Source: Candidatus Yanofskybacteria bacterium RIFCSPHIGHO2_01_FULL_43_32 (GTDB taxonomy: Bacteria > Patescibacteriota > Minisyncoccia > 2-02-FULL-40-12 > GWA2-44-9). From it: 64,000 nt of DNA. The DNA lies in the NCBI GenBank assembly GCA_001794125.1, contig MGJF01000013.1, forward strand, positions 450-64,449, given 5' to 3'. A model generated the notes under the pieces. That model saw only the letters and a list, made by a program, of their open reading frames with translations. It did no database searches and was not told the origin of the DNA. Both the position numbers and the translations under genes were made by a program. Shown piece by piece: positions 11,318 to 45,581 of this stretch (position 1 is its first letter; each line of letters begins with the position of its first letter).

Positions 11318-12675
11318 AGCTTAATAAAGCCGGTGATTATATTTTCTTCAACAAGCTCATTCATTCTTTCCCGACCTTGATATTCCGAAAATATTTTATT
11401 CCAGAGCGCCTCCTGCTGGTGGTAAAGATATTTAACCTGACCCTTTTTAACCAAAGACATTATCAGGTCGGTCAGATCAAAACTGACCAATTCTGCTTGT
11501 CCTGAGCTTGTCGAAGGAAAGAAATCTCCCACATAATCCAATCCGGTCCAGTATCCCAGATCAACCTTGTTGCCGTCACCCGGCAGCATTCTTGACAATC
11601 GCCCCAGATCCTCGGACACCTTAAGCCAATGTTCGGCTTCCGGATTTACGTGCGGTTCAAACAGCCTGAAGTCCTGCTCATTATCCTTGGACAGATATGT
11701 CTGGACCACACGCCAGACGGGCCTCTCGTTTTCAATCTTTTTGTCCGACACATCGCCCCTTAAAAGTGATTTGAATTTATCCACGAAATCCGGGTCTTTT
11801 ATGAATTTACGGAACAGATTGGAATAGAACGGCACCTCGTGCAGATAGTGCATTATAAGAGTAAACATTCTCATCGTTTCGCCGGCGGTATCTATGGGCA
11901 GAGGAATAACGAAGATAACGCCATATTCCTTGAGGTGGCTGATATTGTGGTATTTTTTTTCAAGGAATTTGTCGGCCACCGCAAGCCATTTGGTTTCCAA
12001 TACTTTCAGCTCCACGTCTCTTTCTTCAAAATCTTCAGGCTTCAGTTCATTATAGGCAACATCGAAAAATTTATGCATCCAATCCGTGCTTTGCGTAAAC
12101 CTCAAAGCGCTGACAACGGAAACAAACCCTTCTTTTTCTATCAACTCCCTGACCGAAGAATATCCGAAATGCTTGAGCATATTGTCGGGAGGATATTTCT
12201 CCAGAAGTTCGGCTACTTTTTCTTTTTTTATAAAAAATCCTTTGGGCGGAGTGAAGACCTTGAAAGCCGTTTCGCCAAGCTTGCCGCAACCGTCCGACAT
12301 CTTGAACAGATCCGGCCTGTCCAGCAACTCATATAAATTCTGGTCCAGATCGATCAGGCGGCGGATTAAGGCGGTGTAAATTTCTTCCGCCGTTGAGCTT
12401 CGCGTCAAAGACAGTTCGGTCAAGGTTTTTGAAACCAAAGCGTCGTTTTGATTTGCGACGGCCTCCATAACTCCGTCTTGACCGGTAATTTTACCCATTT
12501 TTCCGTCTAATTCATAAAGAACCTCCGGTGTGGTTCTCAATATTGCCGCAAGTTTTTTGTATGGTTCTAACATGCTCGGAGTGGGCTCCCACTTGTCGTC
12601 CGCGAGGGGGCCCATTGCATTCCTCCCTTTCTGAATGCTCCCGAGAGGAGCAATGGGGACACGCGTCGGCGACAA
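11314..12675 (-). CDS. Conserved hypothetical protein (453 aa) embedded in sugar-phosphate operon
   Basis: It has no recognisable motifs. It overlaps fba by 4 nt and is co-directional with pfkB, rpe and rpiB. Confidence 0.5.
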   Translation of the reverse strand: MSPTRVPIAPLGSIQKGRNAMGPLADDKWEPTPSMLEPYKKLAAILRTTPEVLYELDGKMGKITGQDGVMEAVANQNDALVSKTLTELSLTRSSTAEEIYTALIRRLIDLDQNLYELLDRPDLFKMSDGCGKLGETAFKVFTPPKGFFIKKEKVAELLEKYPPDNMLKHFGYSSVRELIEKEGFVSVVSALRFTQSTDWMHKFFDVAYNELKPEDFEERDVELKVLETKWLAVADKFLEKKYHNISHLKEYGVIFVIPLPIDTAGETMRMFTLIMHYLHEVPFYSNLFRKFIKDPDFVDKFKSLLRGDVSDKKIENERPVWRVVQTYLSKDNEQDFRLFEPHVNPEAEHWLKVSEDLGRLSRMLPGDGNKVDLGYWTGLDYVGDFFPSTSSGQAELVSFDLTDLIMSLVKKGQVKYLYHQQEALWNKIFSEYQGRERMNELVEENIITGFIKL

Positions 12676-29500: not shown

Positions 29501-30185
29501 GTGGGAAGCGGCGGTAAGCATACCTGTGACGAGCACCAATACCATTTCCAGAAATGATTACTTCCAGGTGACGGGCGCTCCGGCGCAGGTTAAAATAAAC
29601 AGTATCAGGGACTCCACCGTTCCTTCCATCACGGCGAACATCACCATCACGAACGAGGGTAATGCGGCGTTCGAATATCACTACGAATACTGCATAGTCG
29701 CCGAACAGCCCATTCAATGTATCGGCGTCAATGCTTTAGCGTACGGTCTAGGCGCAAAGCTCATTCAGCCCGGAGAGGATTTCACAACCGACCTCATTCT
29801 CCAAGTTTCCAATCCCGGCACGTATTATTTCAAGGTCGGGGTGTATTGGGGAACCGAAAGATCCGGAGCCGCCCTGCAATTCCAGGCAAAAATCCAGACG
29901 TTGCAGGTTCAGCAATCGCCGGGAGGCGGAGGGGGCGGTCCGGCTCCGGAACCGGCAAAACCGCCAAGCATCAGTCTGGAGCAAATCTGGAATCTTCTTG
30001 CCAGTCTTCTTACCCAAGTAACCGGCGCCGGCCAAAAAATAGGCGTCATTGAGTCCCGCCTGAACTATCTTGAGCGGATATGGTCACAACTTCAGCCGCA
30101 AATCCAGCCGTCCAAAACCGCCGCTCCGGCCAAAGCGGCTCCGATCTCAAAAATAAAACCGGTAATAAAAATACGGATAAAATGA
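26562..30185 (+). CDS. Giant secreted surface protein (1207 aa) with tandem FN3-like repeats and Gly-rich C-terminal coiled region
   Basis: It has a signal peptide and two ~105-aa repeats of NAPAAPTN.SP.N.TSV.TLTPMLEAS.YSD.ESDTHAATQWQVT....YYW.VRYRDN..THWSNYSTETSF. A GGGGGG tract lies near the C-terminus. Confidence 0.7.
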   Translation: MRFAIILTALLLFPAGFVFAAETQIDASVDVTTAAHNGSSPTVVFTSDNIGYAFYSDSAGTCAYSKTINGGSSWGTPVTVDAQTDCNHIAVWYDGWTPGISGGYIHISTMDAADLWYNRLEVSSDTLLLGSTPVNASGANQAGVFTAAANTHSITMGTDGDVYMGVQDAGDSFVVKCSASCDTADNWTEAGLVSPFDLDEDWLILMPLSGENILAIRWDISGNAIQSKVYNDTLNTWDVLWANVDSNALENTTYDAAFGATLKRSTGDMYLAYAGDYGTLGTDDDIRTAVYSGGAWTAKTNVLTNDTKGITGVKIAIDDNTADDVYVVYSARATAGTAATGNIYYKKSSDGMATWGTEQGPINTTAGDLYGSRVNIISDQRIYVTWDLPSADDILGTTIADLAPPAITVGSAGTQTVNLTIPSADAYVGGAFTFLRDNESANVTQIIISETGTVNANTNLSDVKLYYKAQAACDSALPGDATLFNSSAGTFSGSEKAALTGTMSVNGTQVCVYVQMDIGSGAIANDTLEIEIANPSADIAVSAGGILPATSVAISGTTTLISNNAPAAPTNVSPPNSTSVVTLTPMLEASAYSDNESDTHAATQWQVTAVSGDYSSSVFDFTSSTGETSRVIPADTLLNATTYYWRVRYRDNFNATHWSNYSTETSFLTANNAPAAPTNISPINGTSVTTLTPMLEASTYSDPESDTHAATQWQVTSTPGDYSSPVFNFTSITAETSRVITASTLSNTATYYWHVRYRDNINPTHWSNYSTETSFITALTQLSIKIEALSGKTEYFIGDNVPLDVQVTNFTTGSPINDAAVTVSVFDPSGTKIITDQAMAYISNSSGIYRYTMVNPTVNGTYVYEIKAVKSGQSGYGAANFQVGALASTKALSESIQASQQKISTATLSDVGNLELGKTYRAKLTLENFESELTDSFSLPTITIYDSLRNVLINSLPMTKINDGTYEFTYLTGAGQVSGLWEAAVSIPVTSTNTISRNDYFQVTGAPAQVKINSIRDSTVPSITANITITNEGNAAFEYHYEYCIVAEQPIQCIGVNALAYGLGAKLIQPGEDFTTDLILQVSNPGTYYFKVGVYWGTERSGAALQFQAKIQTLQVQQSPGGGGGGPAPEPAKPPSISLEQIWNLLASLLTQVTGAGQKIGVIESRLNYLERIWSQLQPQIQPSKTAAPAKAAPISKIKPVIKIRIK
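28251..28890 (+). repeat. Two tandem ~315-bp direct repeats (about 80% identical) inside the giant gene
   Basis: Repeat 1 is about 28251-28568 and repeat 2 about 28569-28890, read directly. Confidence 0.7.
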
Positions 30186-33752: not shown

Positions 33753-33922
33753 TAATTAAAGGTTCGGTAGTCCTTACTCCAGTAAGAAAATAACCCGCAT
33801 AATTGCAGGTTATTTTCCTTTGCTCGCCCTGAAGGACGATTTCCGACAGATAGATTGGGTATCGGAATTCGGCGACCTTGAGTTATTACAGAAACGGTTG
33901 AATAGATTCTTGGCGGTATAAG

Positions 33923-34132
33923 CTAAATCTCTGACCACATCGACTTTTGATCGTCGGGGAGCTTCTGGAAGCACTCCTCGCACATCTTGGCTGGCTCATC
34001 GGCCTTGAAATCGGCGCCTTCCTCAACCGCACCACCGCCGACCATGACTCCCGGATTGTGATGCCACTTTATTTGGTCATCCGGCCAGACCTTATCGCAG
34101 TCGAGACCATTACATGGGACTTGTTTATTCAT
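33923..34132 (-). CDS. Small Cys-rich hypothetical protein
   Basis: ORF only. Confidence 0.3.
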   Translation of the reverse strand: MNKQVPCNGLDCDKVWPDDQIKWHHNPGVMVGGGAVEEGADFKADEPAKMCEECFQKLPDDQKSMWSEI

Positions 34133-34211
34133 AAACTGATGCTATCACCAAAAATTTTATTTGTCCAAACCCGACCTATTCTTGTAAAAATCGCCGTTTG
34201 GTCTTATTTTT

Positions 34212-34628
34212 ATGATCATGGATAAAGTATCGAAAAACAAAAGAAGCGACATCATGCGAGCGGTAAAAAGCAAAAATTCAAAAATCGAGATCTCCTTGAT
34301 GCAAGAATTGAGAAAAAGAAAGATCGCTTACAAAAAACATGTTCCCAACCTCCCCGGAACTCCGGATATCGTTCTGAAAAAAGAAAAAGTCGCCATATTC
34401 GTGGATTCTTGTTTTTGGCATGGATGCAGGTGGCACGGAACCATGCCGGCTTCAAATAGAAAATTCTGGACTCAAAAAATATCCGCCAACAAAGCCAGAG
34501 ACAAAAGAGTGACCGTCATGTGCCGAAACTTGGGCTGGAAAGTGTTGAGATTTTGGGAACACCAACTGGAAAAAGATTTTGATGGAATAGCGGACAGAAT
34601 TCAAAAACAAGCGACTCTAATCCGGTAG
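34212..34628 (+). CDS. vsr: Very-short-patch repair endonuclease
   Basis: The protein contains SDIMRAVKSKNSKIE, LPGTPDIVL, VAIFVDSCFWHGC and LGWKVLRFWEHQL, which are Vsr signatures. It converges on the dcm gene and overlaps its 3' end by 12 nt. Confidence 0.85.
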   Translation: MIMDKVSKNKRSDIMRAVKSKNSKIEISLMQELRKRKIAYKKHVPNLPGTPDIVLKKEKVAIFVDSCFWHGCRWHGTMPASNRKFWTQKISANKARDKRVTVMCRNLGWKVLRFWEHQLEKDFDGIADRIQKQATLIR

Positions 34629-35702
34629 ATTCTCCAGGTGGTTTTTTATGCTTGAAGCGATAGCCCGTCCCAATAAAACCGGGACAGCATTGCCTATCAG
34701 GCGGGCCGTTTTGGTCATGGAGACATTATCTCCTTCATTGAATCGATAGTGAGAAGGGAAGCTTTGTAATAATGCCGCTTCTCTCAAAGATATGGCTCTG
34801 TTTTGAGAAGGATGACCGAATCTTCCGGTCCCGAGATTTACGCAATGCGTCGTGATCGTCGGTGAAGGTTCATCCCATTTCATCCTGCCGTAAACTGAAG
34901 ACATGTATGAATGCCCGCTGGCCTTTTTATAACAAGCCGGCATAAGTTCCGGTTTCCAACTTTTGGCGTTCCCGCCGTTCTTCGGCGTAGCCATTACTCT
35001 TCTTTTGTTCAAGGGACTCAATTTGCTCGCCCTGTGAAGCGGATCTTTTCGATCGACTTCCCCGTCTTTTATGTGTTTCAAACCAAAGATGGCATCTCGG
35101 ACCGTCACGAGGTTATTTTTGTCTTTAGTTTCCGGAACCAGATTTATTTCTCCGAATTTCGAGGCCAATAATACCAACCTTTTTCTTTTTTGAGGAACGC
35201 CGTACTTCGAGGCATCCACGACTCGGTAAAAAACATGATATTTGTTTTTTCGCAAAGAAGCCAGAAACTTTTTGAATATGGGATACTTTTTTTCTTTCGC
35301 GAGATCGGGAACATTTTCCATGGAAATTATGGCCGGTTTGGTATGGGCTATCAAACGACCGAATTCCTCGAGCGGTTCCCATCTTTTATCGCTTTTTCTA
35401 TGGGCGGAATTTTTACGATTCAGAGCCGAAAATGGTTGACACGGAGCGCAACCGACGAGGATTTTTATTTCGGCATTTCCAAATAATCCGTTCAATTCGG
35501 AAGAAGATAGATCGGAAACATTTCGATGAACGAATTTTGTCCGGTTGTTTTTTTCGAACGGATATCTGCACGAGTTGTCGATGTCGACTCCCGCCACGAC
35601 ATCGAATCCCTCCAAGACAAAGCCGTGAGTCAAACCACCCACACCGCAAAATAAGTCGACGACTTTTGTCATCCCCAACATTTTCTTTCGAGACGACTCC
35701 AT
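34617..35702 (-). CDS. dcm: DNA (cytosine-5)-methyltransferase M1
   Basis: The motifs are I DLFCGVGG, IV CAPCQPFS, VI ISMENV, VIII YGVPQKRKR and X IGNAVPV. Confidence 0.85.
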   Translation of the reverse strand: MESSRKKMLGMTKVVDLFCGVGGLTHGFVLEGFDVVAGVDIDNSCRYPFEKNNRTKFVHRNVSDLSSSELNGLFGNAEIKILVGCAPCQPFSALNRKNSAHRKSDKRWEPLEEFGRLIAHTKPAIISMENVPDLAKEKKYPIFKKFLASLRKNKYHVFYRVVDASKYGVPQKRKRLVLLASKFGEINLVPETKDKNNLVTVRDAIFGLKHIKDGEVDRKDPLHRASKLSPLNKRRVMATPKNGGNAKSWKPELMPACYKKASGHSYMSSVYGRMKWDEPSPTITTHCVNLGTGRFGHPSQNRAISLREAALLQSFPSHYRFNEGDNVSMTKTARLIGNAVPVLLGRAIASSIKNHLENLPD

Positions 35703-35739
35703 ATATCGATTATAGAATAAATAAATGAAAAACTCGAGA

Positions 35740-37902
35740 TCAGCTCTTGTTGAAAACTATCAGTTGAGCTTTTTCCGGAAGGACTAAAGTGGGGTAGATA
35801 AATGGGTTACCATTCCAACCGGCCGGTTTCTTCCCCGTAAATTCGACTTGAAAAATCCACAATACCGGCTTGTTGCCGGCCACATCAGCCGCGACGTCGG
35901 TTCCGGCCAAAACACCTTGGGCAAGAAGTCCGTTTTCGCCGGGAGCGCGATTCGCTTTTCTGAACTTCAGCATAATGCCATTTTTGAATTCTTGGCTCAA
36001 ATAGGAAAGAATGGCGGGTATTTTTTTGTCGTTCCACACATTCGTCCCACCCGTTTTTATCATTGAAATGAGTTTCTTGGCTTCTTCCGTGCTTATCTTT
36101 TTTCCTTCCCGGCCCTTATTTCGATCTGTATATTCGGGAAATAAAGAGCTCAATTTGCCAATCACTTTCGTGAATACGTCATCCGCTTCGGGACTTTTGA
36201 AGAATGGATAATTCGGGTATATCTGCGTGCCCGGAACAAGTATATCGACCTTGCGCGCATCCAGAACGCACCTGCGAGTGGCTCGAATGTCTTTTGCGAT
36301 TCTGACGGGAAATGACTCGAGCGAGCCCTTATTTTTTTCGATAAACTTTCTCAATTCTTCGTCGCTTATGTAAATCTGTCGGAATCTCTCATGCAATTGA
36401 GGCGGCAAGAAAACGCGAGTATAGGGTAGGGTCTTTTTTCTGTAGCCGAACATCCGAGCGTGTTGATACATAGTATCCATTTGAGCGATCTTCGCTTCAC
36501 GGATATAATAAGTCACGAGAAGATTTTTTATCGCAAGGCCTCGGCCGAGAGTGTTGCCTCCAATCAAAAAATTGAAGTATTTGCTGTAGGTCAATTCGTC
36601 ACCAGTGGTATTTTTGTTGATGAGCAAAATCTCTCGAGAATTGAAATTTCTGCTGATGATTTGAAGTAAAGTATCCAAAGACGGGACACTTTTAGTTTGT
36701 TTTTTCAGAGAGTCGTAAGAGGTCTCCATATCGTTATACAAGTGATGGGTTTTGCTCGTAAAAGCCCCCGCCAGGTCTCCGAGATATTTGGTCACGAGGT
36801 TGGCCACTTTTTCTTGATCTTTGGTTTTGACGCTTGGGTGACAAAGCAGTTTATAACCCTTGTCTTTTCCGTCGTCCGGCCATCCGAACTTTTCTCCGGC
36901 CGCGGCGGAAGATAAAAGAAAAAATCTTATGGAATTTTTCAAACCATTCGGAAGTTCCGCCGTGTCCCCATCGAGAAGTTCAATCCTTTCATTCCCGTCG
37001 ATTAGAGATACGAGTTTATTCTTTGAAGGGTTGGGTTCAGAAAAGAAAGTTTCCCCCCCGACATAATCTTTACCCGGGCGTAACAATTCGATGAAAGACG
37101 GCCTCGATTTGTTATCGATATTTTGAAGAACGATTCCCGATGGAGTTCCGGTCACGCTCACGAAAACATGCCGAGGCAAAGCTTTGCGCAAAGAATCTAT
37201 GGCGGGATCATGTATCAATTGGTGAATCTTGCTTGGAGCTATGAGCGGATTTTTCTTGGAGCGTTTGAGATTATTCGTATCTAACGTGGCCTGATCTCCC
37301 TCGTCGTCAAAAATGATCGCCGGATATTCGCTCGCTTCTATTTTGCGCAAAAACTCTATGGCTTGATGCAACCGCGTCGCTCCCTTCGAGCAAACGATCA
37401 CGATACCGCCAATCCCGGATTTCAAAATTTGTTTGGCCTGTTCGACCTCTCGTTTGAAATGCGTTTTTGAGTAAACTCTGATGCCTCCGGGCAGTCCGTT
37501 GGCGAAATCCTGTCGGGTTTGTTCCACCAGACGATTATTGTTGCTCGTGATCACGACGACCGCTTGGAACTTGTTGTCAAATGCCAAAGCGGAACTGGTA
37601 ATCATGGCCCGGGTTTTTCCGCTTTGAATTCGGCCATAAACCAGGCCGGTAGAAACCGGCTCGTCGACTTTAGCCACCCTATCGGTTGGTCCATCGCCTT
37701 CTTTTCCGACTTCTCCAGCTTTCACCTTGTCTTCATAAGTTTTCACGATCGCGGAAACTATCTGTTCGGCATTTTCGGTCGCTTCTTTTCTTGCAAGTTG
37801 AACTAACTTCGGCTTGACCGCATCCAATGTTTCTTTGAAGTTTTCTCCGTTTTTATTTATTGCCGTCATGAAAAAATAATCGTTCAAATTTGAACTTGCC
37901 AA
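35740..37902 (-). CDS. 720-aa P-loop NTPase (Walker A GRIQSGKT, Walker B-like IIFDDEGD); architecture reminiscent of Z1-domain proteins associated with Dcm methylases
   Basis: The motifs are read from the translation. It lies in an operon between the two C5-MTase genes. The Z1 assignment is from memory of the family and is not verified. Confidence 0.45.
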   Translation of the reverse strand: MASSNLNDYFFMTAINKNGENFKETLDAVKPKLVQLARKEATENAEQIVSAIVKTYEDKVKAGEVGKEGDGPTDRVAKVDEPVSTGLVYGRIQSGKTRAMITSSALAFDNKFQAVVVITSNNNRLVEQTRQDFANGLPGGIRVYSKTHFKREVEQAKQILKSGIGGIVIVCSKGATRLHQAIEFLRKIEASEYPAIIFDDEGDQATLDTNNLKRSKKNPLIAPSKIHQLIHDPAIDSLRKALPRHVFVSVTGTPSGIVLQNIDNKSRPSFIELLRPGKDYVGGETFFSEPNPSKNKLVSLIDGNERIELLDGDTAELPNGLKNSIRFFLLSSAAAGEKFGWPDDGKDKGYKLLCHPSVKTKDQEKVANLVTKYLGDLAGAFTSKTHHLYNDMETSYDSLKKQTKSVPSLDTLLQIISRNFNSREILLINKNTTGDELTYSKYFNFLIGGNTLGRGLAIKNLLVTYYIREAKIAQMDTMYQHARMFGYRKKTLPYTRVFLPPQLHERFRQIYISDEELRKFIEKNKGSLESFPVRIAKDIRATRRCVLDARKVDILVPGTQIYPNYPFFKSPEADDVFTKVIGKLSSLFPEYTDRNKGREGKKISTEEAKKLISMIKTGGTNVWNDKKIPAILSYLSQEFKNGIMLKFRKANRAPGENGLLAQGVLAGTDVAADVAGNKPVLWIFQVEFTGKKPAGWNGNPFIYPTLVLPEKAQLIVFNKS

Positions 37903-38975
37903 TCCGGGGGCAAAACGATCTTGTCATAGCCGCGCTTGAACATGAACGGCTCTATCTCTTTGCTCGACGGAAACTCGGCATCGAATTCCCGCTCCACATC
38001 CGCAAGCAATTTCGATCCTAGAGTGGCTCTGTATTTTTTGCTCAAGCAAAGCTTGTACCAGTCATCCAAGTCGTTGATGGTTATGATGCCCTGTATCCTG
38101 TCGCTCCAACCGACCTGTTTCAGCAACGTCTCGATCGCTTCTCGTTCGGAATCGAGGCAAACGATGACGATATGATCCGCCGTCAGGTTGTCGGCTATAT
38201 CTTCGACAAGCTCCGGCGTAAGCGTCAAATGCTTGACCTGAATCGCCGGACCAAAGTTGGCCCATATATCCAAGCCCCTGTCGGCGGCGTTGGTCACACC
38301 GACTCGATAGAGAGCGGCCGGTAAAATGAGCTTGGTTTGTTTTGAATCGACGCCGAGCACCATCTTTATGAACCTCTCGAAATCCTTCAGAATCTCCTCG
38401 TCTTTGTTTCCGATCTCCAGAGTTATCTGTGCCCTCAAAGCCCGGACGATCGTGCTAAAAAGAGCGTAAACCAATATTTCATACATTTTGTCTATGCTTC
38501 GACGCAACCCCGGCGTCGTTTGGAAAATGGCGACAAGCTCTTTGAGCGAAAAGCTGTCGGCCGTGGATTTTTTGATATAATTTTCGACATCCCGGACAGA
38601 CGAAAGTCGCGCCTCCAACGCTTTATAAATATAAGCTTCGACCAGCCCCTTGTTTTTCTTATTTATTACTCCAAGCTGGGCGAGCAATTCGGGCGGCATG
38701 GCATTCGCTTCAAAAACATTGTCCTGGTATTTCTGGCTGGAAGTGCTTCTGCGACCGACCAAAAGCATCGAAACTTCGTCTCGCCAGCGTTTGGATATAT
38801 TGCGATATGACTGAAGATCGTTCAGGTCCCAACCCTTCTCGGTTCTGTGGTGAAGCAAAATTTCCGCTATCTGTATCGGCTTGTACAAATGGACTCTGGA
38901 TTTGCGTATGATCAGGTCCAGAGCAGATTTTGAAAGATTTTTAGTGGGCATAAATTCGTCGTATTTTTTGTTCAT
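37884..38975 (-). CDS. 363-aa uncharacterised protein, candidate nuclease/effector partner of the NTPase (AIPR-like or restriction endonuclease candidate)
   Basis: It overlaps both the upstream MTase gene and the downstream NTPase gene. Possible PD-(D/E)xK-like segments are GLDIWANFGPAIQVK and CLDSEREAIE. Confidence 0.35.
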   Translation of the reverse strand: MNKKYDEFMPTKNLSKSALDLIIRKSRVHLYKPIQIAEILLHHRTEKGWDLNDLQSYRNISKRWRDEVSMLLVGRRSTSSQKYQDNVFEANAMPPELLAQLGVINKKNKGLVEAYIYKALEARLSSVRDVENYIKKSTADSFSLKELVAIFQTTPGLRRSIDKMYEILVYALFSTIVRALRAQITLEIGNKDEEILKDFERFIKMVLGVDSKQTKLILPAALYRVGVTNAADRGLDIWANFGPAIQVKHLTLTPELVEDIADNLTADHIVIVCLDSEREAIETLLKQVGWSDRIQGIITINDLDDWYKLCLSKKYRATLGSKLLADVEREFDAEFPSSKEIEPFMFKRGYDKIVLPPDWQVQI

Positions 38976-39948
38976 TTGAAAATAATCCGGATTGATTCAA
39001 TTTTTGTTCCGGTTTTTGAGACATCGCGAAGATCATGGCCCGGGCCACCGCTTCTATTTTAGGCACCACCACGCTATTGCCGGCCTGCTTCCGGACTTGA
39101 GTGTCCGGGACGATGATTTTGAATGTATCCGGGAAACCTTGCAAACGCAACATCTCTCTGGGGGTGAGGCGGCGTCGACCATTTACGGTGACGTAGTTAT
39201 AAGAGCCGTTCGCTCGCAAAGCGCATGAGTAAGGATGAATTCCGATGTTGCCGCTTTTGTTTTCGTGCCACACTGCCGGCCTGATATGATCCGTTTTATT
39301 TTGTTCTTTGAGGTTGGCTTGGAGCTTGGCTTTGAAATAGTCGCTCAAAAAATGTTTTTTGTCTATTTGACCCTCCGGCTCGAGGATGTCGGAAAGAGTT
39401 TTTGATTCAATCCCATTTTTAGGAAATTCGAAGGGATGATCCTCTTTGAAACCGACCAACATTATGCGTTCGCGTTTCTGCGGCACACCGAAATCCAATC
39501 CGTTCAGAACCTTATAGTGAACAAAGTAGCCGAGTTTCTCGAGACGCTCGAGGATCACCTTGAATGTCCGGCCCTGATCATGGGTAGTGAGTTGTTTTAC
39601 ATTTTCGAGAAGAAACGCCTTCGGCTGTTTCACTTTCAATATTCTTTCGACATCGAAAAATAGCGTTCCTCTCGTGTCGGCAAACCCCAGTTTATTTCCT
39701 ATGATGCTGAAAGCTTGGCAAGGGAAACCGCCGGTAAGAATATCGTGATCGGGAATCTCCTCCGCCTTTATTTTAGTTATGTCGCCAAAGGGTCTCTCGC
39801 CGAAATTGGCCTCATACATGTCTTGGCACGCCTTGTCCCACTCCGAAGTGAACACGCATTTGCCGCCGGCTCGTTCAAAAGCGATTCGGATTCCGCCGAT
39901 GCCGGCGAAGAGATCGATAAAAGTGAATTTTTTCTTTTTATGCCCCAT
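38941..39948 (-). CDS. DNA (cytosine-5)-methyltransferase M2
   Basis: The motifs are I DLFAGIGG, IV GGFPCQAFS, VI LLENV, VIII FGVPQKRER and X AGNSVVV. Its variable region is distinct from M1. Confidence 0.85.
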   Translation of the reverse strand: MGHKKKKFTFIDLFAGIGGIRIAFERAGGKCVFTSEWDKACQDMYEANFGERPFGDITKIKAEEIPDHDILTGGFPCQAFSIIGNKLGFADTRGTLFFDVERILKVKQPKAFLLENVKQLTTHDQGRTFKVILERLEKLGYFVHYKVLNGLDFGVPQKRERIMLVGFKEDHPFEFPKNGIESKTLSDILEPEGQIDKKHFLSDYFKAKLQANLKEQNKTDHIRPAVWHENKSGNIGIHPYSCALRANGSYNYVTVNGRRRLTPREMLRLQGFPDTFKIIVPDTQVRKQAGNSVVVPKIEAVARAMIFAMSQKPEQKLNQSGLFSNEQKIRRIYAH

Positions 39949-40003
39949 GAGTTTTATTTTTTATCATCGCAGAAAAATCCGATAAAATCAAACTTGAAAA
40001 CGA

Positions 40004-40873
40004 TTGAAAATATGGGGATGTTGTGCGATTATATGCTCAAAAACTATGGGGCGAAATACAAAAACAATTTACAATGAAACGTTCTATTGGCTGTCAGGAA
40101 TTTTGAATAGCAAAGAGTTTTTGTCGCAAATCAGAGAATTGAAAAACTCTTTCCGGCGATTCGGTTGCCAATTGCCGGCCAAGGGTTTCTATAAGAGTAT
40201 GCGCCGGGACAGAGCTTTTGCGGCATGGCATAAAAAACTTCAGAATGCCTGGACAGAAGCGGTCAAAAGCGATGCCTACAGAAATGCTCGAGCCAAGGTA
40301 ATAGGAAAAAAACAAAACTGGTCCCGCAAAGAACAGGACCGGCTCGACAAAATAGACCAAAAATTTCTACCCCCAATCAACTACGGAGATAAATTGAATC
40401 AAATATTGTTGAAGTTCGATCTCGATCCGGAAAACAGAAGCCATAAAGATTGGATACGTAACTACTTATTCTTCGGCGAAAGAAATTTTACGAGACCGAG
40501 TTATAAACTAAGAGTTGTTACCGGAAAAGACGGTCGACCCGAACTCTGGGTCAGGTTTTTTGGCCATACAAGTGTTGCGGACTTGCCAATGCGAGAGATA
40601 CGGGAAATCCAAAAGTTCCTTCCCGATTACAAGGGCAAAAATCGAAGAAAAGACAAGCGTGTCGCCAAGCGCAATAAAGAGGTTGTTGATGAATACTTCC
40701 GGTTGAAAAAATCGCCACGGCTTACATCATATGACAGAAGTGAAAAGGGCAACTCTATAGCAAATAAAATCATAGCTAAAATCGGCAAAAAATACCCGGA
40801 GCTGACTTCCGGATTGGTAAAAGTTGTAATAGCTAAAAACAAGAATAAGGAAAAGCATAAGGAACAAATCTAA
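40004..40873 (+). CDS. Hypothetical basic protein
   Basis: It is an ORF. The probable start is at MGRNTK, 40046. Confidence 0.35.
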   Translation: MKIWGCCAIICSKTMGRNTKTIYNETFYWLSGILNSKEFLSQIRELKNSFRRFGCQLPAKGFYKSMRRDRAFAAWHKKLQNAWTEAVKSDAYRNARAKVIGKKQNWSRKEQDRLDKIDQKFLPPINYGDKLNQILLKFDLDPENRSHKDWIRNYLFFGERNFTRPSYKLRVVTGKDGRPELWVRFFGHTSVADLPMREIREIQKFLPDYKGKNRRKDKRVAKRNKEVVDEYFRLKKSPRLTSYDRSEKGNSIANKIIAKIGKKYPELTSGLVKVVIAKNKNKEKHKEQI

Positions 40874-40905
40874 TTTTTTCCTTATCCCCGGCCTATATCA
40901 AAAAG

Positions 40906-40932
40906 TTCTACGATATCCGTATAGCAAATACG
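40906..40932 (+). terminator. Hairpin ATCCGTAT-AGCAA-ATACGGAT + T6
   Basis: Read directly from the sequence. Confidence 0.6.
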
Positions 40933-40947
40933 GATTTTTTATTCCGG

Positions 40948-41002
40948 CTATGGGGATTAGAAAACGCTACAGTTAGCCCCATAGCTGTAGCGTTTTCTAA
41001 TG
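40948..41002 (+). promoter_or_regulatory. Interlocked inverted repeats (pseudoknot or alternative-hairpin topology) whose 3' arm contains the ATG of the downstream small ORF
   Basis: X is CTATGGGG, 40948-55. Y is ATTAGAAAACGCTACAG, 40956-72. The loop is TTAG. rcX is CCCCATAG, 40977-84. rcY is CTGTAGCGTTTTCTAAT, 40985-41001. The Y/rcY pairing is 17 bp perfect. Confidence 0.5.
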
Positions 41003-41203
41003 GAAATAAGCCCAGACAAAATTCAAAGATTGATAGACCATCGACTGAAGAAATATGGGGAGATTTTGACGCCGGAGGAAGCGAAAGAGGATCTGGAATC
41101 TGGGGTTAGATTGTTCGGCTGGCTTTTGAAATACGACCGCAAACAAAATGTTGAAAATCCGAAAGTGAAGAAGGCCGATGATACCGAGGGTCTGGTTCTG
41201 TAA
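41000..41203 (+). CDS. Small hypothetical protein (67 aa)
   Basis: It is an ORF. Its start is sequestered in the stem above and no SD is present. Confidence 0.3.
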   Translation: MEISPDKIQRLIDHRLKKYGEILTPEEAKEDLESGVRLFGWLLKYDRKQNVENPKVKKADDTEGLVL

Positions 41204-41485
41204 GGGACCGGGCCCATGGGATCATCCCATGCGTCGCAAAGGGGCATACTCGTGGTGCTCGCCGGGCGACGTAAATAAACCGGCGAAAGATTACGAGCGA
41301 CCGACCGACGCGACCGACGGTGATGACAGAGGGCGCGCCCGGATTATCTGATTTCTCAATCTACTGTCAAAGATGATTGAAGAAAGACAATCAGAATAAG
41401 AAGGGCTGTCCACGGAGCAGACAGAGCAATCACCAGAGGGAGCGGAGGGAGGGAAGGCCTGGAAAAGAATAAGAAATCGGGGTTT

Positions 41486-41683
41486 ATGTCGACAAAAACG
41501 CAAAATGACAAACAGCGGCGTGTTACAAGACAGATCAGAATTTCTTCCGACTTCCATCGGAAGGTCAAACTGCTTGCCGCCGAACAGGGAAAAACAATTT
41601 CCATCCTCGTAGATGGGATTTTGAATCAATACTTTACCCCACCCGTCCCGGATAGTCCGGACGGATCGGAAATAAAACAATGA
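41486..41683 (+). CDS. Ribbon-helix-helix (CopG/Arc/ParG-like) DNA-binding protein
   Basis: RISSDFHRKVKLLAAEQGKTISILVDGIL fits the RHH pattern of a beta-strand followed by two helices. Confidence 0.6.
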   Translation: MSTKTQNDKQRRVTRQIRISSDFHRKVKLLAAEQGKTISILVDGILNQYFTPPVPDSPDGSEIKQ

Positions 41684-42183
41684 ACCCCGCCAAACTTCAC
41701 TCTACTAAAAACCGGCCGGCTCGGTTGAAGAAACACCACTTCCGGGCCGTAGAACTCCGCTACGAAGGCAAAACCTACCGGGAGATTTCGATGCGGTTGA
41801 GCGAAGAACTGCAACATGATTTCAAAGAGCAGACGGTCAAGTGGTGGTTTATGTCTTATGGCCTCTTGGAGGAGCTGTATGTGGATTATGCCCGGAAAGA
41901 AAACGATCGGCGGCGGCAATTCATAATCGAGGAGTGTAAAAAATTGATTCCTCTTATTCCTAAAAAATACAACGAGATCATCAATCGGAACACTTCGGAT
42001 ATGACCCCGGCCCAGCTGACATCTTATCACTCTGTTCTGCGGCAAACACTGAAAGACCTTTGCGAACTGCTGAATTTCAAAGTAGAGCCGGATGAGGTGA
42101 TAACGGATCCGCTGGACGAATACTTTGATCGGGCTGAAGCGGAACTTGATCGTGAAGAAAAAGAGAGAAACAGATCGCCGTAA
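41680..42183 (+). CDS. HTH-domain protein (terminase-small-subunit-like or sigma-region-4-like)
   Basis: It contains HHFRAVELRYEGKTYREISMRLS. It overlaps the RHH gene by 4 nt (ATGA). Confidence 0.45.
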   Translation: MNPAKLHSTKNRPARLKKHHFRAVELRYEGKTYREISMRLSEELQHDFKEQTVKWWFMSYGLLEELYVDYARKENDRRRQFIIEECKKLIPLIPKKYNEIINRNTSDMTPAQLTSYHSVLRQTLKDLCELLNFKVEPDEVITDPLDEYFDRAEAELDREEKERNRSP

Positions 42184-42187
42184 AGAA

Positions 42188-42345
42188 TGGATAAACTGCC
42201 GGTTTCTGGTATAATGGCAATGCTTGCCTACTATTCAAAACTACCGAAGTTCTAACCGCTTGCGATTCCAAACGGGGTGGTTAGACCTCCACAAGCGGGA
42301 CTTCGGTTCTGTGAATAGTGGGCAAGCAGGTTTAGCCGCCCCTTT
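42188..42345 (+). ncRNA. Candidate small RNA: promoter TGGATA-N16-TATAAT, then ~110-nt imperfect long hairpin with inner stem CCGCTTG/CAAGCGG, then GCCGCCCCTTTT
   Basis: The promoter is at 42188-42215. The inverted arms are TGCTTGCCTACTATTCA...CCGAAGTTC and GACTTCGG...TGAATAGTGGGCAAGCAGG, at 42221-42330. Confidence 0.4.
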
Positions 42346-42401
42346 TGAATTTCTGGCAATTTGTAAACCAAGCGGTCTGAACTCAAAATGGGTCAATAGA
42401 A

Positions 42402-42686
42402 ATGGATAGGATCAAAAATATGGGGTGGGGGCAGTGGATACTGATCGGCGTGGCTGGATCAATCTTTTTGGCCATCATCGGGTCGACGGAAGCCGGGAAG
42501 GTATTGCTCGGCTTGGCATTTATCATCGGGCTGATACTCTTGTATTTCCTGCCGGCGATAATAGCCGGGAGAAGGAGGAACCCGGATGAAAAACAGATCA
42601 TGATCCTCAATGTGTTCCTCGGATGGACATTCGTGGGATGGGTGATCGCCCTGATCTGGGCGTATAAAGAACACCCCAAAAAATAA
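42402..42686 (+). CDS. Superinfection immunity-family membrane protein
   Basis: It has two TM helices and the motif FLGWTFVGWVIALIWAY, typical of the Imm_superinfect family. Confidence 0.65.
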   Translation: MDRIKNMGWGQWILIGVAGSIFLAIIGSTEAGKVLLGLAFIIGLILLYFLPAIIAGRRRNPDEKQIMILNVFLGWTFVGWVIALIWAYKEHPKK

Positions 42687-42743
42687 AAGAAAAACTCTCC
42701 CGCCTGGAAGCAAAGAGAGTTTTTCGACAATAACCTTTCGGCT

Positions 42744-44510
42744 TTGTTATTATCAGGATATCACGAGATATACTGGCGAGGCAAACCGGAAGCTCAAGCT
42801 ACCATGACAAATATAAAAACCAATATGGCGATAGGTTATGGCCGAGTGTCGTCTCTGAACCAAGAGATAACTGGATACTCTTTGCCGGCACAGGAAAAAA
42901 TCATAAGAGATTATGCTGAAAAACATTCTCTTGAAATCGGTAAGAGGATTATACTTGTTGCCGAATCGGCAAGCGGCAAAGTCGACAGAAAAAAATTCCA
43001 CGAGATGCTGGATTTAGTGAAGAAAGAGGGCATATGCAACATGATAGTTGAATCGGTGGACCGCTTGGCGAGAAATTTCCGGGAAGCAAATAAAATTGAC
43101 GAGTGGCTTATGTCAGACGGAAGAAATCGAATCCATTTCATAAGAGGGTCCACAGTCATGCATAAAGATTCAGAATATCAAGAATGGTTTTTCTACAGAA
43201 TGAATTTAGCCGCCGCCGAAATGGGAACTAAACAGATTTCAGCGAATGTGAGAAAGGGACAAAAAGAAAAAATCGCCCAGGGCGGATTTCCAAGCAAACC
43301 GCCACTCGGATACCGAACTACCGGGGAACGAGGCCACAAAACACACGAGATAGACCCAGAGAAAGCTCCTTTCATCAAGCAGATGTTTGAACTTTATTCA
43401 TCCGGCCAGCATTCCTTGAAATCGCTGACGAAATTGCTCGAGCAAGAAGGCCTCCGCAATAGATCGGGAAGGCCTATTGTAAAAAGCCGCGTAGCGGAAC
43501 TTTTATCCGATCCGTTTTACTACGGCGACATGAGGTGGGGCGGAGAAATCTATCTGGCTGGACACAAACCGCTGATAAGCAAGGAACTTTACGACCGGGT
43601 TCAAAAGATAATGCACTCGAAAACTACGCCGAAATACCGGAAACACGATTTCCTATTCAAACAGCTTATGAAGTGCGAGATCTGCGGAGGCACCATAACC
43701 GGTGAAATACAAAAAAACCACATCTACTACCATTGCAACGGATATCGGGGCTGTAAAAGGCGGATTTCGGCCCGTGGGGATGTATTGGAAGCCCAGATCA
43801 TAGAAGTGTTCGACTGGTTTGAGAACGGCCTCGACCCGGAAGAAGTGGGCATCGTCCAAGAAATATTGAAGGAAGACCATAAAGATAAGATTCAATACAT
43901 GCAGAACCAGATCTCTGAAATACACAGCCGGCTGAATACTCTAACCCAAAGAGAAAAGAGGGATTATGAAAACATGCTCGATGGGAAAACAACCAGAGAA
44001 GAACACGACCAGAGGATAAAAGAGTGGGGCCTGGAAAAACAAGCCCTAATAGACAAAGAATCGAAACTGGCGCAAAACAATACCCATGATCTGTTGCTTG
44101 GCAGTTCGTTTATGGATCTGGCCCGGCGGTCCCGGGAAATCTACAATGGGCTAAAAGATGATGTCCGGGCTAAAAGGGAGTTTTTATCGCTGATATTTTC
44201 GAACCTTACATTGAATAACGGAATTCTCAAGAAATTCTATAGAACCCCGGTCCTCCGCATCCGGGAAAGAGCAGAGCAGGCGAAAAATTTCGAACCAACC
44301 AAAAACCCCAGTATTAATGGGGCTTCTGGCGTTCTTTATCATCAACCAATAGAACCAATGCTTCCCTCGGCTTCTAAAAATTACGAACCGAAAGAATCAC
44401 TGATTCTAAGCCACGATTTAAAGGTTGAACCTACAAATCACGACCTCTGCTCCGCGGCCAGGACTCGAACCTGGAACCATCTCCTTAACAGGGAGCCGCT
44501 CTACCATTGA
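42744..44510 (+). CDS. Large serine recombinase (resolvase catalytic domain + recombinase domain + Zn ribbon)
   Basis: It contains IGYGRVSSLNQE (the catalytic Ser motif) and a Cys cluster CEICGG...YYHCNGYRGC. The 3' end of the ORF runs antisense through tRNA-Asn. The true start is probably ~42804-42825. Confidence 0.8.
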   Translation: MLLSGYHEIYWRGKPEAQATMTNIKTNMAIGYGRVSSLNQEITGYSLPAQEKIIRDYAEKHSLEIGKRIILVAESASGKVDRKKFHEMLDLVKKEGICNMIVESVDRLARNFREANKIDEWLMSDGRNRIHFIRGSTVMHKDSEYQEWFFYRMNLAAAEMGTKQISANVRKGQKEKIAQGGFPSKPPLGYRTTGERGHKTHEIDPEKAPFIKQMFELYSSGQHSLKSLTKLLEQEGLRNRSGRPIVKSRVAELLSDPFYYGDMRWGGEIYLAGHKPLISKELYDRVQKIMHSKTTPKYRKHDFLFKQLMKCEICGGTITGEIQKNHIYYHCNGYRGCKRRISARGDVLEAQIIEVFDWFENGLDPEEVGIVQEILKEDHKDKIQYMQNQISEIHSRLNTLTQREKRDYENMLDGKTTREEHDQRIKEWGLEKQALIDKESKLAQNNTHDLLLGSSFMDLARRSREIYNGLKDDVRAKREFLSLIFSNLTLNNGILKKFYRTPVLRIRERAEQAKNFEPTKNPSINGASGVLYHQPIEPMLPSASKNYEPKESLILSHDLKVEPTNHDLCSAARTRTWNHLLNREPLYH

Positions 44511-44521
44511 GCTACCGCGGA
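44450..44521 (-). tRNA. tRNA-Asn (anticodon GUU), CCA not encoded
   Basis: The reverse complement is TCCGCGG-TA-GCTC-AATGGTA-GAGC-G-GCTCC-CTGTTAA-GGAGA-TGGTT-CCAGG-TTCGAGT-CCTGG-CCGCGGA-G. Confidence 0.8.
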
Positions 44522-44675
44522 ATATTTTGTTAATACTGACAAGTAGAATTTTAGCATAAAATTCAAATAATTCAATTCTCTTCCACGTCCTGGTTGCAGG
44601 GCAACGATAAAAACATATTGACAAACAATAAGCAATAAATTAAGACGGAGATATAAAAATCCATAAACATTACCC

Positions 44676-45155
44676 ATGAAAAGAAGCTCAACAATATTTC
44701 TTCAGGTAGTCATTGTGCTTATTGGCATCCTGGCGCTGGTCATCATGATCCGGTTTCCCTTGACCGAGGGTAGAGCTGTAAATTTAGATTTGTTCAATAT
44801 CTATTTTGATCCGTTCATTGTGTATGGGTACTTAGCGTCTACCCCATTTTTCGTTGCGCTGTATCAGGTGTTTAAATTACTCGGATACATCGGGCAAAAT
44901 AAAGTATTCACACCAAGCTCCGTAAGGGTTTTTAGGAATATAAAATATTGCGCAATCATATTAAGTGTTTTAATTGTGATGGCCGCACTATATATAAGGA
45001 TATTTCATGCTACAGATGACGATCCGTCTGGCTTTATTGCCGTGGCTATTGTGGCTACTTTTATTTCTATCGTAATCGCTACTGTGGCGGCTGTGTTTGA
45101 AAGAACCACACAAAATGCCGTGGATATAAAATCAGAAAACGATTTAACTGTTTAA
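44676..45155 (+). CDS. Multi-pass membrane protein (DUF2975-like)
   Basis: It has four TM helices. It pairs with a downstream XRE regulator, as in yozG-type cassettes. Confidence 0.5.
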   Translation: MKRSSTIFLQVVIVLIGILALVIMIRFPLTEGRAVNLDLFNIYFDPFIVYGYLASTPFFVALYQVFKLLGYIGQNKVFTPSSVRVFRNIKYCAIILSVLIVMAALYIRIFHATDDDPSGFIAVAIVATFISIVIATVAAVFERTTQNAVDIKSENDLTV

Positions 45156-45157
45156 TT

Positions 45158-45364
45158 ATGAATAATATCGTAATAAATATTGATGTAATGCTGGCAAAAA
45201 GAAAGATGAGTGTTACTCAACTTGCGGAGAAAGTTGGAATAACGATGGCAAATATTTCTATTTTGAAGAATGGAAAAGCTAAAGCAATTCGTCTATCAAC
45301 TTTGACGGCGATTTGTAAAGCTTTAGATTGTCAGCCCGGGGATATTTTAGAATACAAAAAGTAA
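45158..45364 (+). CDS. XRE-family (Cro/C1-type) HTH transcriptional regulator
   Basis: The protein contains MSVTQLAEKVGITMANISILKNGKAKAIRLSTLTAICKALDCQPGDIL. Confidence 0.75.
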   Translation: MNNIVINIDVMLAKRKMSVTQLAEKVGITMANISILKNGKAKAIRLSTLTAICKALDCQPGDILEYKK

Positions 45365-45410
45365 TGCTTATGATGACTTTTAATCTATGCGGTTGTGATA
45401 TTGTCTTTAT

Positions 45411-45581
45411 ATGAATCCCGTACTAAAAATAATAATGTCCATTTTCGGAATATTATTCGGGGCGTTTATGTTTGTATATGGCGGAATTGATGATAGTCCC
45501 GGAGGGCAATTGTTAGGACTCTTAGTGGTTATCATCGGAATTGTGGGTATTATAAAGAGTAAGAAGAAAAATTCTAGCTAA
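45411..45581 (+). CDS. Small membrane protein (56 aa; below ORF-track cutoff)
   Basis: Manual translation gives MNPVLKIIMSIFGILFGAFMFVYGGIDDSPGGQLLGLLVVIIGIVGIIKSKKKNSS. Confidence 0.35.
   Translation: MNPVLKIIMSIFGILFGAFMFVYGGIDDSPGGQLLGLLVVIIGIVGIIKSKKKNSS

Follow-up and report, generated by a model that had tools for sequence, protein, structure and literature searches.

A genomic island of Patescibacteria, very probably placed by a large serine recombinase at the extreme 3' end of tRNA-Asn

We analyzed a 64,000-nucleotide stretch of DNA from Candidatus Yanofskybacteria bacterium RIFCSPHIGHO2_01_FULL_43_32 (contig MGJF01000013.1; hereafter the window), in which a gene for a large serine recombinase (LSR) runs into a tRNA-Asn gene. 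An initial annotation, made from the letters of the window, had flagged the interval 40004-44521 as a serine-recombinase element and had suggested that the restriction-modification (R-M) genes to its left might be its cargo. Two genes mark the right end of the locus:

42825-44510, plus strand: LSR, 561 aa as called (domains, motif and family alignments)
44449-44521, minus strand: host tRNA-Asn (GTT), called by ARAGORN and Rfam (68.5 bits), which serves as the B' arm of the bacterial attachment site, attB

The open reading frame (ORF) of the LSR extends over 42744-44510 (588 aa), and gene callers start it at 42825. The protein matched Resolvase (PF00239, E 4e-19, residues 29-180 of the 588-aa ORF), Recombinase (PF07508, E 1e-15) and Zn_ribbon_recom (PF13408, E 7e-8), and phrog_95 'integrase' aligned over residues 18-510. 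With these three domains we found both features that had first drawn attention to the gene, the YGRVSS motif and the C-terminal Cys cluster; the zinc-ribbon cysteines C284, C287, C304 and C310 are invariant or nearly so in family alignments. A long coiled coil forms part of the well-predicted body of the AlphaFold2 (AF2) model of the homologue P0010 (44% identical, aligned throughout), where it comprises helices 352-384 and 390-441, with predicted local distance difference test (pLDDT) values of 75-91. By domain criteria, the protein is a member of the large serine recombinase family. The initial annotation had allowed that the gene might prove inactive or fragmentary; the LSR is intact and retains all residues that are invariant in 20- and 70-sequence family alignments. 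Its stop at 44510 lies antisense inside tRNA-Asn, as had been noted, with an overlap of 62 nt.

Termination inside a tRNA gene belongs to the LSR clade and not to this genome alone. The closest LSRs, P0004 (50% identity) and P0003 (49%), likewise end antisense inside tRNA-Asn, but in other host contexts, with different host genes downstream (thioredoxin/VKOR; nucleoside deoxyribosyltransferase). A scan of the clade with one genome per GTDB species gave 80 loci (related loci carry the prefix L below), nearly all from metagenome-assembled genomes (MAGs) of Patescibacteria, and the ORF end fell inside the locus in 77. Of these 77 ORFs, 47 terminate within or directly beside the 3' end of a tRNA that reads in the opposite direction (39 Asn, 7 Gln and 1 Leu). 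Several apparent exceptions arise because group I introns interrupt the tRNA genes, which ARAGORN then misses. The database tails '...LLRGQDSNLQP' and '...ARTRTWNHLL' are antisense translations of tRNA acceptor and T arms. The clade thus adjoins tRNA-Asn, less often tRNA-Gln or tRNA-Leu, in dozens of species, with different cargo in each. An ancient locus with the same gene order in all relatives had been named as the outcome that would speak against a mobile element; the other species differ in cargo and in host context.

The group I introns (RF00028, 65-78 bits) were seen in LSR-abutting tRNA genes at L015:265-449, L027:11613-12005 and L034:11603-11887, all on the minus strand. That of L015 sits inside the tRNA-Asn anticodon, and the LSR ORFs of L015, L027 and L034 read antisense through the interrupted tRNAs.

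Comparison with relatives defined both ends of the element in the window, for which the following features matter:

33781-33821, minus strand: host B arm, the displaced native tRNA-Asn terminator (hairpin 33790-33813, then a U-run), from the reconstructed attB
33822-33825: attL core GCTC, left end of the island, the sole sequence in register with attR
33820-33921, plus strand: 33-aa ORF (MLALKDDFRQIDWVSEFGDLELLQKRLNRFLAV), whose TTG start overlaps the core; a homologue of the peptide found fused to the C-terminus of LSRs in attP-form or tandem copies of related elements
33826-33850, plus strand: P' arm of attL, with GGAC at +12 as in the tRNA arm; TCGAAC-like motif degenerate, CCGACA
44449-44452: attR core GCTC, right end of the island, formed by the last bases of the tRNA-Asn gene

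In the P0004 element (locus L010), the tRNA 3' end is repeated 8.2 kb to the left of the tRNA, and just inside this repeat is a short coding segment that ends ...KDDFRTIDWVAEFGDLTLLQQQLNKFLNY and a stop codon. Peptide motifs of this type recur 0.2-10 kb upstream of the LSR in many loci. The window has a single occurrence, at 33835-33921 (LKDDFRQIDWVSEFGDLELLQKRLNRFLAV, then a stop codon), a homologue of the attL-side peptide of L010. Alignment of the junctions of seven loci, including the window, revealed a core, T(T/G)GCTC, common to attL and attR in L029, L058, L078, L088, L094 and L098. At both junctions of the seven loci, this core occupies the tRNA 3' terminus and the position directly before the peptide segment; the crossover dinucleotide is placed only to about ±5 bp. 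Rejoining the outer flanks of the window gave an attB junction that reads ...GGTTATTTTCCTTTGCTC followed by CGCGGCCAGGAC..., in which a terminator hairpin and U-run begin 5 nt after tRNA-Asn (AUAACCUGCA-AUUA-UGCGGGUUAU, then UUUCUU). The same layout of tRNA, then hairpin, was seen in most of the six other reconstructed attB sites, most clearly in L058, L078 and L088. Because the shared cores and outer flanks rebuild tRNA-Asn with its terminator, all sequence between the cores is element DNA. The island so delimited spans 33826-44452 (10,627 bp), and the elements delimited in the six other loci measure 6.5-11.4 kb.

The left end at 33822-33825 lies ∼6.2 kb to the left of the interval first flagged; therefore vsr, both dcm genes, the Z1 NTPase gene and the HaeII endonuclease gene are inside the island, in agreement with the earlier suggestion that the R-M genes are cargo of the serine-recombinase element. 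Also in agreement, no direct repeat of the tRNA 3' end was found. In searches of the whole window with blastn-short and a fuzzy 18-mer, the 18-mer was unmatched within four mismatches, and the ends share the 4-8 bp core only. A 17/1 match at 2668-2684, considered as a partial copy of tRNA-Asn, is inside a coding region and was judged to be chance. The initial annotation had called for comparison with relatives to find the ends and the empty site; it gave the ends, and no empty site was found. In L010, ∼100 nt between the tRNA 3'-end repeat and the peptide ORF (L010:31-135) resemble the 3' half of tRNA-Asn with an expanded T-loop, and may be the scar of an earlier integration.

These data make it very probable that 33826-44452 is an integrated, non-phage genomic island of Patescibacteria (the candidate phyla radiation, CPR), placed by its LSR at the extreme 3' end of tRNA-Asn. 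This degree of confidence is meant for what the island is, where it ends and what it carries, and for the tRNA targeting of the LSR clade. The regulatory consequences discussed below are put forward much more tentatively.

Genomic islands in tRNA genes are a textbook signature of tyrosine integrases. The description of an integrase beside a tRNA as a classic footprint therefore suits that class, and is unusual for serine integrases, which according to the Islander paper were not known to target tRNA genes (PMC4383910). Site-specific serine recombinases are described in a review of integrative mobilizable elements as inserting within genes and disrupting them (PMC5704250), and a large survey of LSR att sites makes no mention of tRNA (PMC10083194). 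Described serine integrases insert into protein-coding genes, and reviews put tRNA genes outside their known targets (PMC4383910, PMC5704250); the tRNA targeting of this clade is its unusual part. An earlier description of the clade was not found in the openly searchable literature; subscription literature was outside the search, and a prior description is possible.

The island shares features with both classes. Like the LSR integrases of phiC31, Bxb1, A118/LI and TP901-1, CcrAB and TndX, its recombinase has a three-domain build, with a catalytic Ser domain, a recombinase domain and a zinc ribbon/coiled coil, and its sites have a very short shared core and no long repeat. It differs from them in that the target is a tRNA 3' terminus, the tRNA is left intact, and attP is located in, or right at, the 3' end of the integrase gene. 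Tyrosine-integrase islands in tRNA genes (P4-type; Islander/TIGER) are alike in having the integrase abut an intact tRNA 3' end, in displacing the native downstream sequence, in carrying defence cargo and in forming tandem arrays at the same tRNA. Yet here the sole recombinase is a serine recombinase, and in place of a duplicated tRNA fragment of 15-50 nt there is only GCTC (up to 8 bp). Searches for islands in CPR and other uncultured genomes would have to be designed differently if a widespread LSR clade occupies the 3' ends of tRNA-Asn, tRNA-Gln and tRNA-Leu without damage to the tRNA. Such a clade would also provide bacteria of very small genome size with a defined carrier of R-M, CBASS-like and other defence genes.

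How the LSR might recognize a tRNA is suggested by the arms of the att sites. Counted from the G of GCTC, the T-loop sequence TCGAAC lies at +16 in the tRNA (B') arm of 7/7 loci. A TCGAAC-like hexamer lies at +21 in the P' arm of 6/7, and GGAC is in register in both arms. For LI/A118 integrase, and by generalization for other LSRs, the distance from the core to the motif bound by the zinc-ribbon domain is 5 bp greater in attP than in attB (PMC3783163). The right arms of the family (+16 versus +21) show the same outward shift of 5 bp, with the exception of the P' arm of the window. We propose that the LSR would bring together an attP situated where its own gene ends and an attB formed by the tRNA 3' terminus, with the T-loop sequence serving as the motif for its zinc-ribbon domain (+16 in attB, +21 in attP). 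Exchange in or near GCTC would then leave the tRNA intact. Recognition of the T-loop would also explain how one LSR family could retarget among tRNA-Asn, tRNA-Gln and tRNA-Leu, and, if correct, would mean naturally retargetable serine integrases with predictable attB sites.

Two further features at the right end of the locus were recognized on the strand opposite to the LSR:

44264-44448, minus strand: trailer RNA directly after tRNA-Asn, antisense to the LSR tail (consensus fold, covariation)
44548-44575, minus strand: promoter-like site for tRNA-Asn on the host side, TTGAAT-16-TG-TAAAAT (consensus match)

The conserved body of the LSR ends near 44285, and the last 75 codons cross the trailer, the P arm and then 62 nt of tRNA-Asn. 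In comparisons of synonymous (pS) and nonsynonymous (pN) differences, the body gave pS of 0.82-0.86, pN of 0.35 and pN/pS of 0.28-0.42. The 46 codons of the tail that lie between the body and the att arm (44286-44423) gave pS of 0.16-0.30, about equal to pN (0.16-0.29), and in L010 the tail frame is shifted by a 1-nt indel. Low pS that matches pN indicates equal constraint on all codon positions, and therefore constraint at the nucleotide level, which we ascribe to the trailer RNA on the tRNA strand. An invariant TTCGAAC is found at 44289-44295 and 44384-44390, and nearly all loci of L023-L101 have it in the corresponding place. At ∼66 nt to the left of the tRNA 3' end, it is beyond the expected att arm of ∼25 bp. 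It is read as FEP, FEH, FEL or FEQ in LSR tails, so the constraint is on DNA or RNA, not protein. We considered whether TCGAACC repeats in the tail are what is left of a tRNA, or form a pseudo-tRNA, but no cloverleaf fits; there are three covarying hairpins on the tRNA strand instead.

In the seven sequences of the window's subclade, the trailer forms three hairpins with many G-U pairs. The consensus fold is far more stable on the minus strand (-57.6 kcal/mol) than on the plus, LSR-sense strand (-20.5 kcal/mol). Pairing was maintained in 93.1% of cells, compared with 37-55% in slid controls; 19 of 50 pairs changed on both sides, a result reached by 0/500 shuffles. The last hairpin (CCCCA/UGGGG plus U5, about 44300-44332) is terminator-like, and looks like a replacement for the displaced native terminator. 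The P arm of attR is formed by the rightmost ∼30 bp of the trailer. The wider family has just one covarying hairpin, with a U-run. The host tRNA promoter would be expected to read into the trailer, antisense to the last ∼225 nt of the LSR ORF.

The other product of the proposed split at attP is the 33-aa ORF at attL. In all six other loci for which both ends are at hand, the LSR becomes joined in frame to a conserved peptide of ∼33 aa when the ends are reunited at GCTC (family consensus ...LALxDDFRTIDWxxEYPYPxxxLxxIxxL, then a stop codon). The window and L010 differ in that peptide and LSR are in different frames, and the peptide has its own start at the same position (TTG and ATG, respectively); by reconstruction, the attP form of the window LSR would end ...NHDLCSP. 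Across the family the peptide has pS of 0.6-0.93 and pN/pS of 0.07-0.64 (window versus L010: pS 0.93, pN 0.24, pN/pS 0.26). The peptide, like the LSR body, evolves as protein. LSR ORFs that already bear the peptide tail where no tRNA is nearby were found in L026, L042 and L072. A peptide profile search returned only 34 short ORFs from 88 candidates, which gives no census of fused versus free forms.

From these reconstructions, integration would give the LSR gene a different 3' end. The last ∼33 codons would split off to attL in most relatives; in the window and its closest relative, the peptide is a separate 33-aa ORF that would stand directly downstream of the LSR only in the excised circle. 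The arrangement is reminiscent of the SSV1-type archaeal integrase, a tyrosine recombinase whose attP lies inside int, so that the gene is split into two large parts on integration. Here too, the recombination site is within the integrase ORF and integration into a tRNA would alter the gene (6/6 relatives). The difference is that only the last ∼33 codons detach here, and in the window they are a separate ORF.

Read-through into the tRNA and the 33-aa peptide could instead lack meaning at the protein level, with conservation reflecting the att arms and the tRNA terminator, and with incidental in-frame fusions. The LSR tail, with its very low pS about equal to pN and its frame altered by 1 nt in L010, behaves as this explanation would have it. 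So does the AF2 model of P0010, a natural fusion, in which the linker is disordered and the peptide is of low confidence, and the first codons of the peptide (DDFRT) coincide with a DNA motif of the P' arm, GACGATTTTCGAAC. But the fusion is in frame in 6/6 reconstructions, with a chance of about 1 in 3 for each, and wherever the frame is lost a TTG or ATG start stands at the same position. Moreover, synonymous change is saturated and pN/pS is 0.07-0.64 over the full length of the peptide, including ∼20 residues past the DNA motif. We consider a peptide without protein-level meaning somewhat improbable.

Some loci contain two P'-peptide segments (L072:1085-1173 and 11571-11659; L061:998 and 3058; L084:719 and 2309), which points to tandem accretion of different LSR elements at one tRNA. 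In these tandem loci, the upstream LSR is fused in frame to the peptide of the next element. L018 was considered as an attP form of the window element and was not used: it shares the trailer, diverges 8 nt into the tRNA, and its LSR is ∼35% identical over the aligned C-terminal part.

A second structured RNA lies upstream of the LSR:

42188-42215, plus strand: promoter-like site, TGGATA-16-TG-TATAAT, which would start a transcript at the first leader helix (consensus match)
42215-42365, plus strand: structured leader RNA of the LSR operon (fold, covariation, models)

The leader folds with a z-score of -5.07 relative to shuffles. Its DNA is 87% identical to that of L010 and 77% identical to that of the P0003 element, whereas identity between the LSR proteins is just about 50%. 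Helices P1-P3 (about 42221-42329) form a rod in which 91.5% of cells are paired and 29/37 pairs changed on both sides among six independent sequences (0/500 shuffles). A long-range helix then joins the apical segment 42272-42283 to 42333-42342, just before a U-run at 42343-42346, and is terminator-like; it pairs GGGGYGGUU with RCCGYCCC plus U4-6, and is 90.5% paired in nine sequences, with modest covariation. A covariance model built from the window, P0004 and P0003 sequences found the RNA immediately before the LSR, and on its strand, in L037, L100, L110, L111 and L112. Model R2, for which only those independent sequences and not the window were used, recovers the window at 85.8 bits and adds L099, L080, L011 and L077, again abutting the LSR start. 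The -10 box just before the first helix is in the same place in the homologous RNAs.

Only tRNA reached the Rfam gathering score in the window, and neither the leader nor the trailer matched, with nothing relevant at E≤5 on the two strands of 39500-45500. Both RNAs belong to the element. The leader and the conserved LSR tail/trailer give the strongest signals in the interval first flagged, and neither was part of the initial annotation. As two covarying motifs without an Rfam entry, they are candidates for RNA-based control of recombinase expression.

A leader acting in cis, with a terminator-like helix or one proximal to the ribosome-binding site, is the most economical reading. It could alternatively be a free-standing small RNA that acts in trans, for example in immunity or host manipulation. 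In favor of this, the RNA has its own promoter-like site and a terminator-like 3' end, the next gene in the window is the superinfection immunity gene described below, and a second promoter-like site precedes the LSR. Yet 12 elements have the leader on the LSR strand, ending 2-200 nt before the LSR or a short preceding ORF, and in L080, L099 and L100 no more than about 25 nt separate its end from the LSR start. We regard the trans-acting RNA as possible but doubtful.

We considered a T-box-like, tRNA-sensing leader with Asn codons in an internal loop and dropped it, as there was no Rfam T-box match, the stem presents the codon on its wrong strand, and AAY readily turns up in A-rich loops. A scan of IMG/VR with 16-mers of the leader gave 13 matches, none confirmed by the covariance model, and these were taken as chance. 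L077 has a second copy of the leader (L077:4364-4527, minus strand; 77 bits with R2), on the opposite strand and ∼3 kb from the LSR.

If the leader acts in cis, its terminator-like helix would gate LSR expression. Together with the exchanged 3' end of the LSR gene and the antisense trailer, it would make both the form and the level of the LSR depend on the integration state. Taken to its full extent, this would mean that an att site inside the integrase gene, a detachable peptide, antisense transcription from the tRNA promoter and a riboswitch-like leader together form an integration-state switch that replaces a classical recombination directionality factor (RDF), with the T-loop as the zinc-ribbon motif. 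In the excised or tandem-junction form, the LSR would be joined to, or co-expressed with, the 33-aa module, which the integrated form would lose. No recognizable RDF was found in the element; in this, and in its conserved leader and trailer RNAs, the clade differs from known LSR integrases. In lambda sib retroregulation and in the integration-dependent immunity of mycobacteriophages BPs and Brujita, att lies between a gene and its 3' region, which gives state-dependent 3' ends. The logic of state-dependent 3' ends of mRNA or protein would be the same here, by analogy and not by homology. Neither system is known to have a serine integrase, a tRNA promoter directed antisense into int, or a structured leader RNA. 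We judge the complete switch to be unlikely as formulated, but an att site in the integrase gene and a detachable C-terminal peptide are a testable candidate for a new control of LSR directionality.

A number of observations weigh against the island and its proposed workings. The ends have only 4-8 bp in common, and the crossover was set by comparison with relatives, not by a repeat. The P' arm of the window is without a TCGAAC-like motif and reads CCGACA, off the family consensus at 3/6 positions, so attL may be decaying; left arms (P and B) are only loosely symmetric with right arms. The LSR ORFs with fused peptide may stem from tandem arrays rather than free circles, and that of L072 resembles a tandem junction. 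In the AF2 model of P0010, the disordered linker and the low-confidence helices of the peptide have pLDDT of 39-55, and the peptide received no confident placement, so that the model lends its proposed role no structural support. Functions proposed for the trailer and leader RNA are hypotheses from position and structure alone. Exact-protein look-ups with two flanking host proteins returned 23 + 23 contigs that all carry the element, and no empty site. Finally, the predicted attP junction (...CACGACCTCTGCTC followed by GCCCTGAAGGAC...) is absent from the fetched loci and IMG/VR, with no circle junction.

Matches to the window were found in JGI contig Ga0209542_10001125 and in two Rifle MAGs of Patescibacteria. 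Since all contigs from the look-ups show the same arrangement, the element is fixed in the sampled population, and current mobility of this island copy is unproven. An old integration, now vertically inherited as an immobile remnant, with an LSR that decays or is kept for another role, would account for the unvarying gene order around either flanking host gene, the off-consensus P' motif, the out-of-frame peptide ORF and the missing circular junction. However, the LSR has all family-invariant residues, the 33-aa ORF is under purifying selection relative to L010 (pN/pS 0.26), and neither the leader nor the trailer RNA is damaged, both reaching scores as high as those of their relatives. Moreover, an out-of-frame peptide with its own start is common to L010, and is therefore a trait of the clade and not a lesion. 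A fixed remnant is thus conceivable, but we incline against it and retain the LSR-placed island as the preferred reading.

The remaining features between the two cores are as follows:

33923-34132, minus strand: 69-aa ORF with two Cys pairs (CxxxxC...CxxC), zinc-ribbon-like, called in several contigs; no family match
34212-34628, plus strand: Vsr very-short-patch repair endonuclease (PF03852, E 2.9e-22; PADLOC Vsr)
34617-35702, minus strand: C5 cytosine DNA methyltransferase, first copy (PF00145, E 4.5e-59; PADLOC MTase_II)
35740-37902, minus strand: Z1-domain NTPase (PF10593, E 5e-37; PADLOC PDLC03202 'Type II helicase domain protein', E 7.6e-82)
37884-38975, minus strand: HaeII-family type II restriction endonuclease (PF09554, E 1e-126; PADLOC REase_II)
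38941-39948, minus strand: C5 cytosine DNA methyltransferase, second copy, partner of the HaeII endonuclease (PF00145, E 2e-99)
40046-40873, plus strand: basic protein of 275 aa; no profile match, one weak relative in L091
40956-41001: inverted repeat, 20 nt per arm, 95% complementary, 6-nt spacer; overlaps the start of the 67-aa ORF
41000-41203, plus strand: 67-aa ORF, found by tblastn in the two closest elements, L010 (39% identity) and L014
41204-41345: GC-rich patch with short palindromes, not an att site (fold z -0.59)
41486-41683, plus strand: probable ribbon-helix-helix (RHH) regulator, 65 aa (sub-threshold profile matches)
41680-42183, plus strand: 167-aa protein, suspected helix-turn-helix (HTH); residues 16-72 conserved upstream of the LSR in L033, L036, L042 and L070
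42402-42686, plus strand: Imm_superinfect-family membrane protein, 94 aa (PF14373, E 2.5e-18; phrog_1039)

The cargo consists of two type II R-M modules and Vsr. The gene for RE_HaeII overlaps a DNA_methylase gene, as in a type II R-M system. HaeII endonuclease with Dcm, Z1 NTPase with Dcm, and Vsr are like those of known type II R-M/Vsr defence islands, and the cargo itself is ordinary. Related elements carry Vsr/Dcm/HNH and SMODS-SLATT (L010), or methyltransferases, NOV_C and Prim-Pol (L011). The ORFs of 275, 167, 67 and 69 aa had no match in profile searches (Pfam, PHROGs, NCBIfam and PADLOC among the libraries used). No relaxase or type IV secretion match to Pfam was found among the island ORFs, of which these four remain without family assignment and might include a novel mobilisation protein.

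The regulators proposed in the initial annotation fared unevenly. The CopG-type protein does match RHH-type families (HicB, RHH_10 and Arc-like, E about 1e-3), all below cut-offs, and relatives of this 65-aa protein are found upstream of the LSR in L084 and L096. A terminase-small-subunit-like HTH protein had been seen at 41680-42183, for which searches of Pfam, PHROGs, NCBIfam and PADLOC gave nothing, even at E≤5. The inverted repeat at 40956-41001 is a plausible candidate operator for the RHH or HTH proteins. As for the GC-rich patch, its palindromes are present, but it folds like its shuffles (52/200 as good) and has no counterpart in 130+ related loci, and we rejected it as a structured or att element. 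The att sites lie at the island ends and not in the patch, as had been supposed, and an origin there is without support.

The superinfection-immunity gene, by comparison, was correctly foreseen, and with small regulators and an integrase it could be what remains of a temperate CPR phage. Matches to Imm_superinfect and to the phrog_95 integrase, and the occurrence of some LSR relatives on IMG/VR contigs, are in line with a degraded prophage. Yet among the ORFs from 33.8 to 44.5 kb, Pfam and PHROGs gave no virion, packaging or lysis family (no capsid, terminase, portal, tail or lysis family in any element ORF). Furthermore, the seven delimited elements of the family are just 6.5-11.4 kb, and related cargo consists of defence or replication genes. 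A prophage origin is thus very unlikely. To the left of the island and outside it, at 26562-30185 of the window, is an ORF of 1207 aa with Ig-like/MG2 matches, in a stretch of raised GC content (0.50-0.53, compared with about 0.44).

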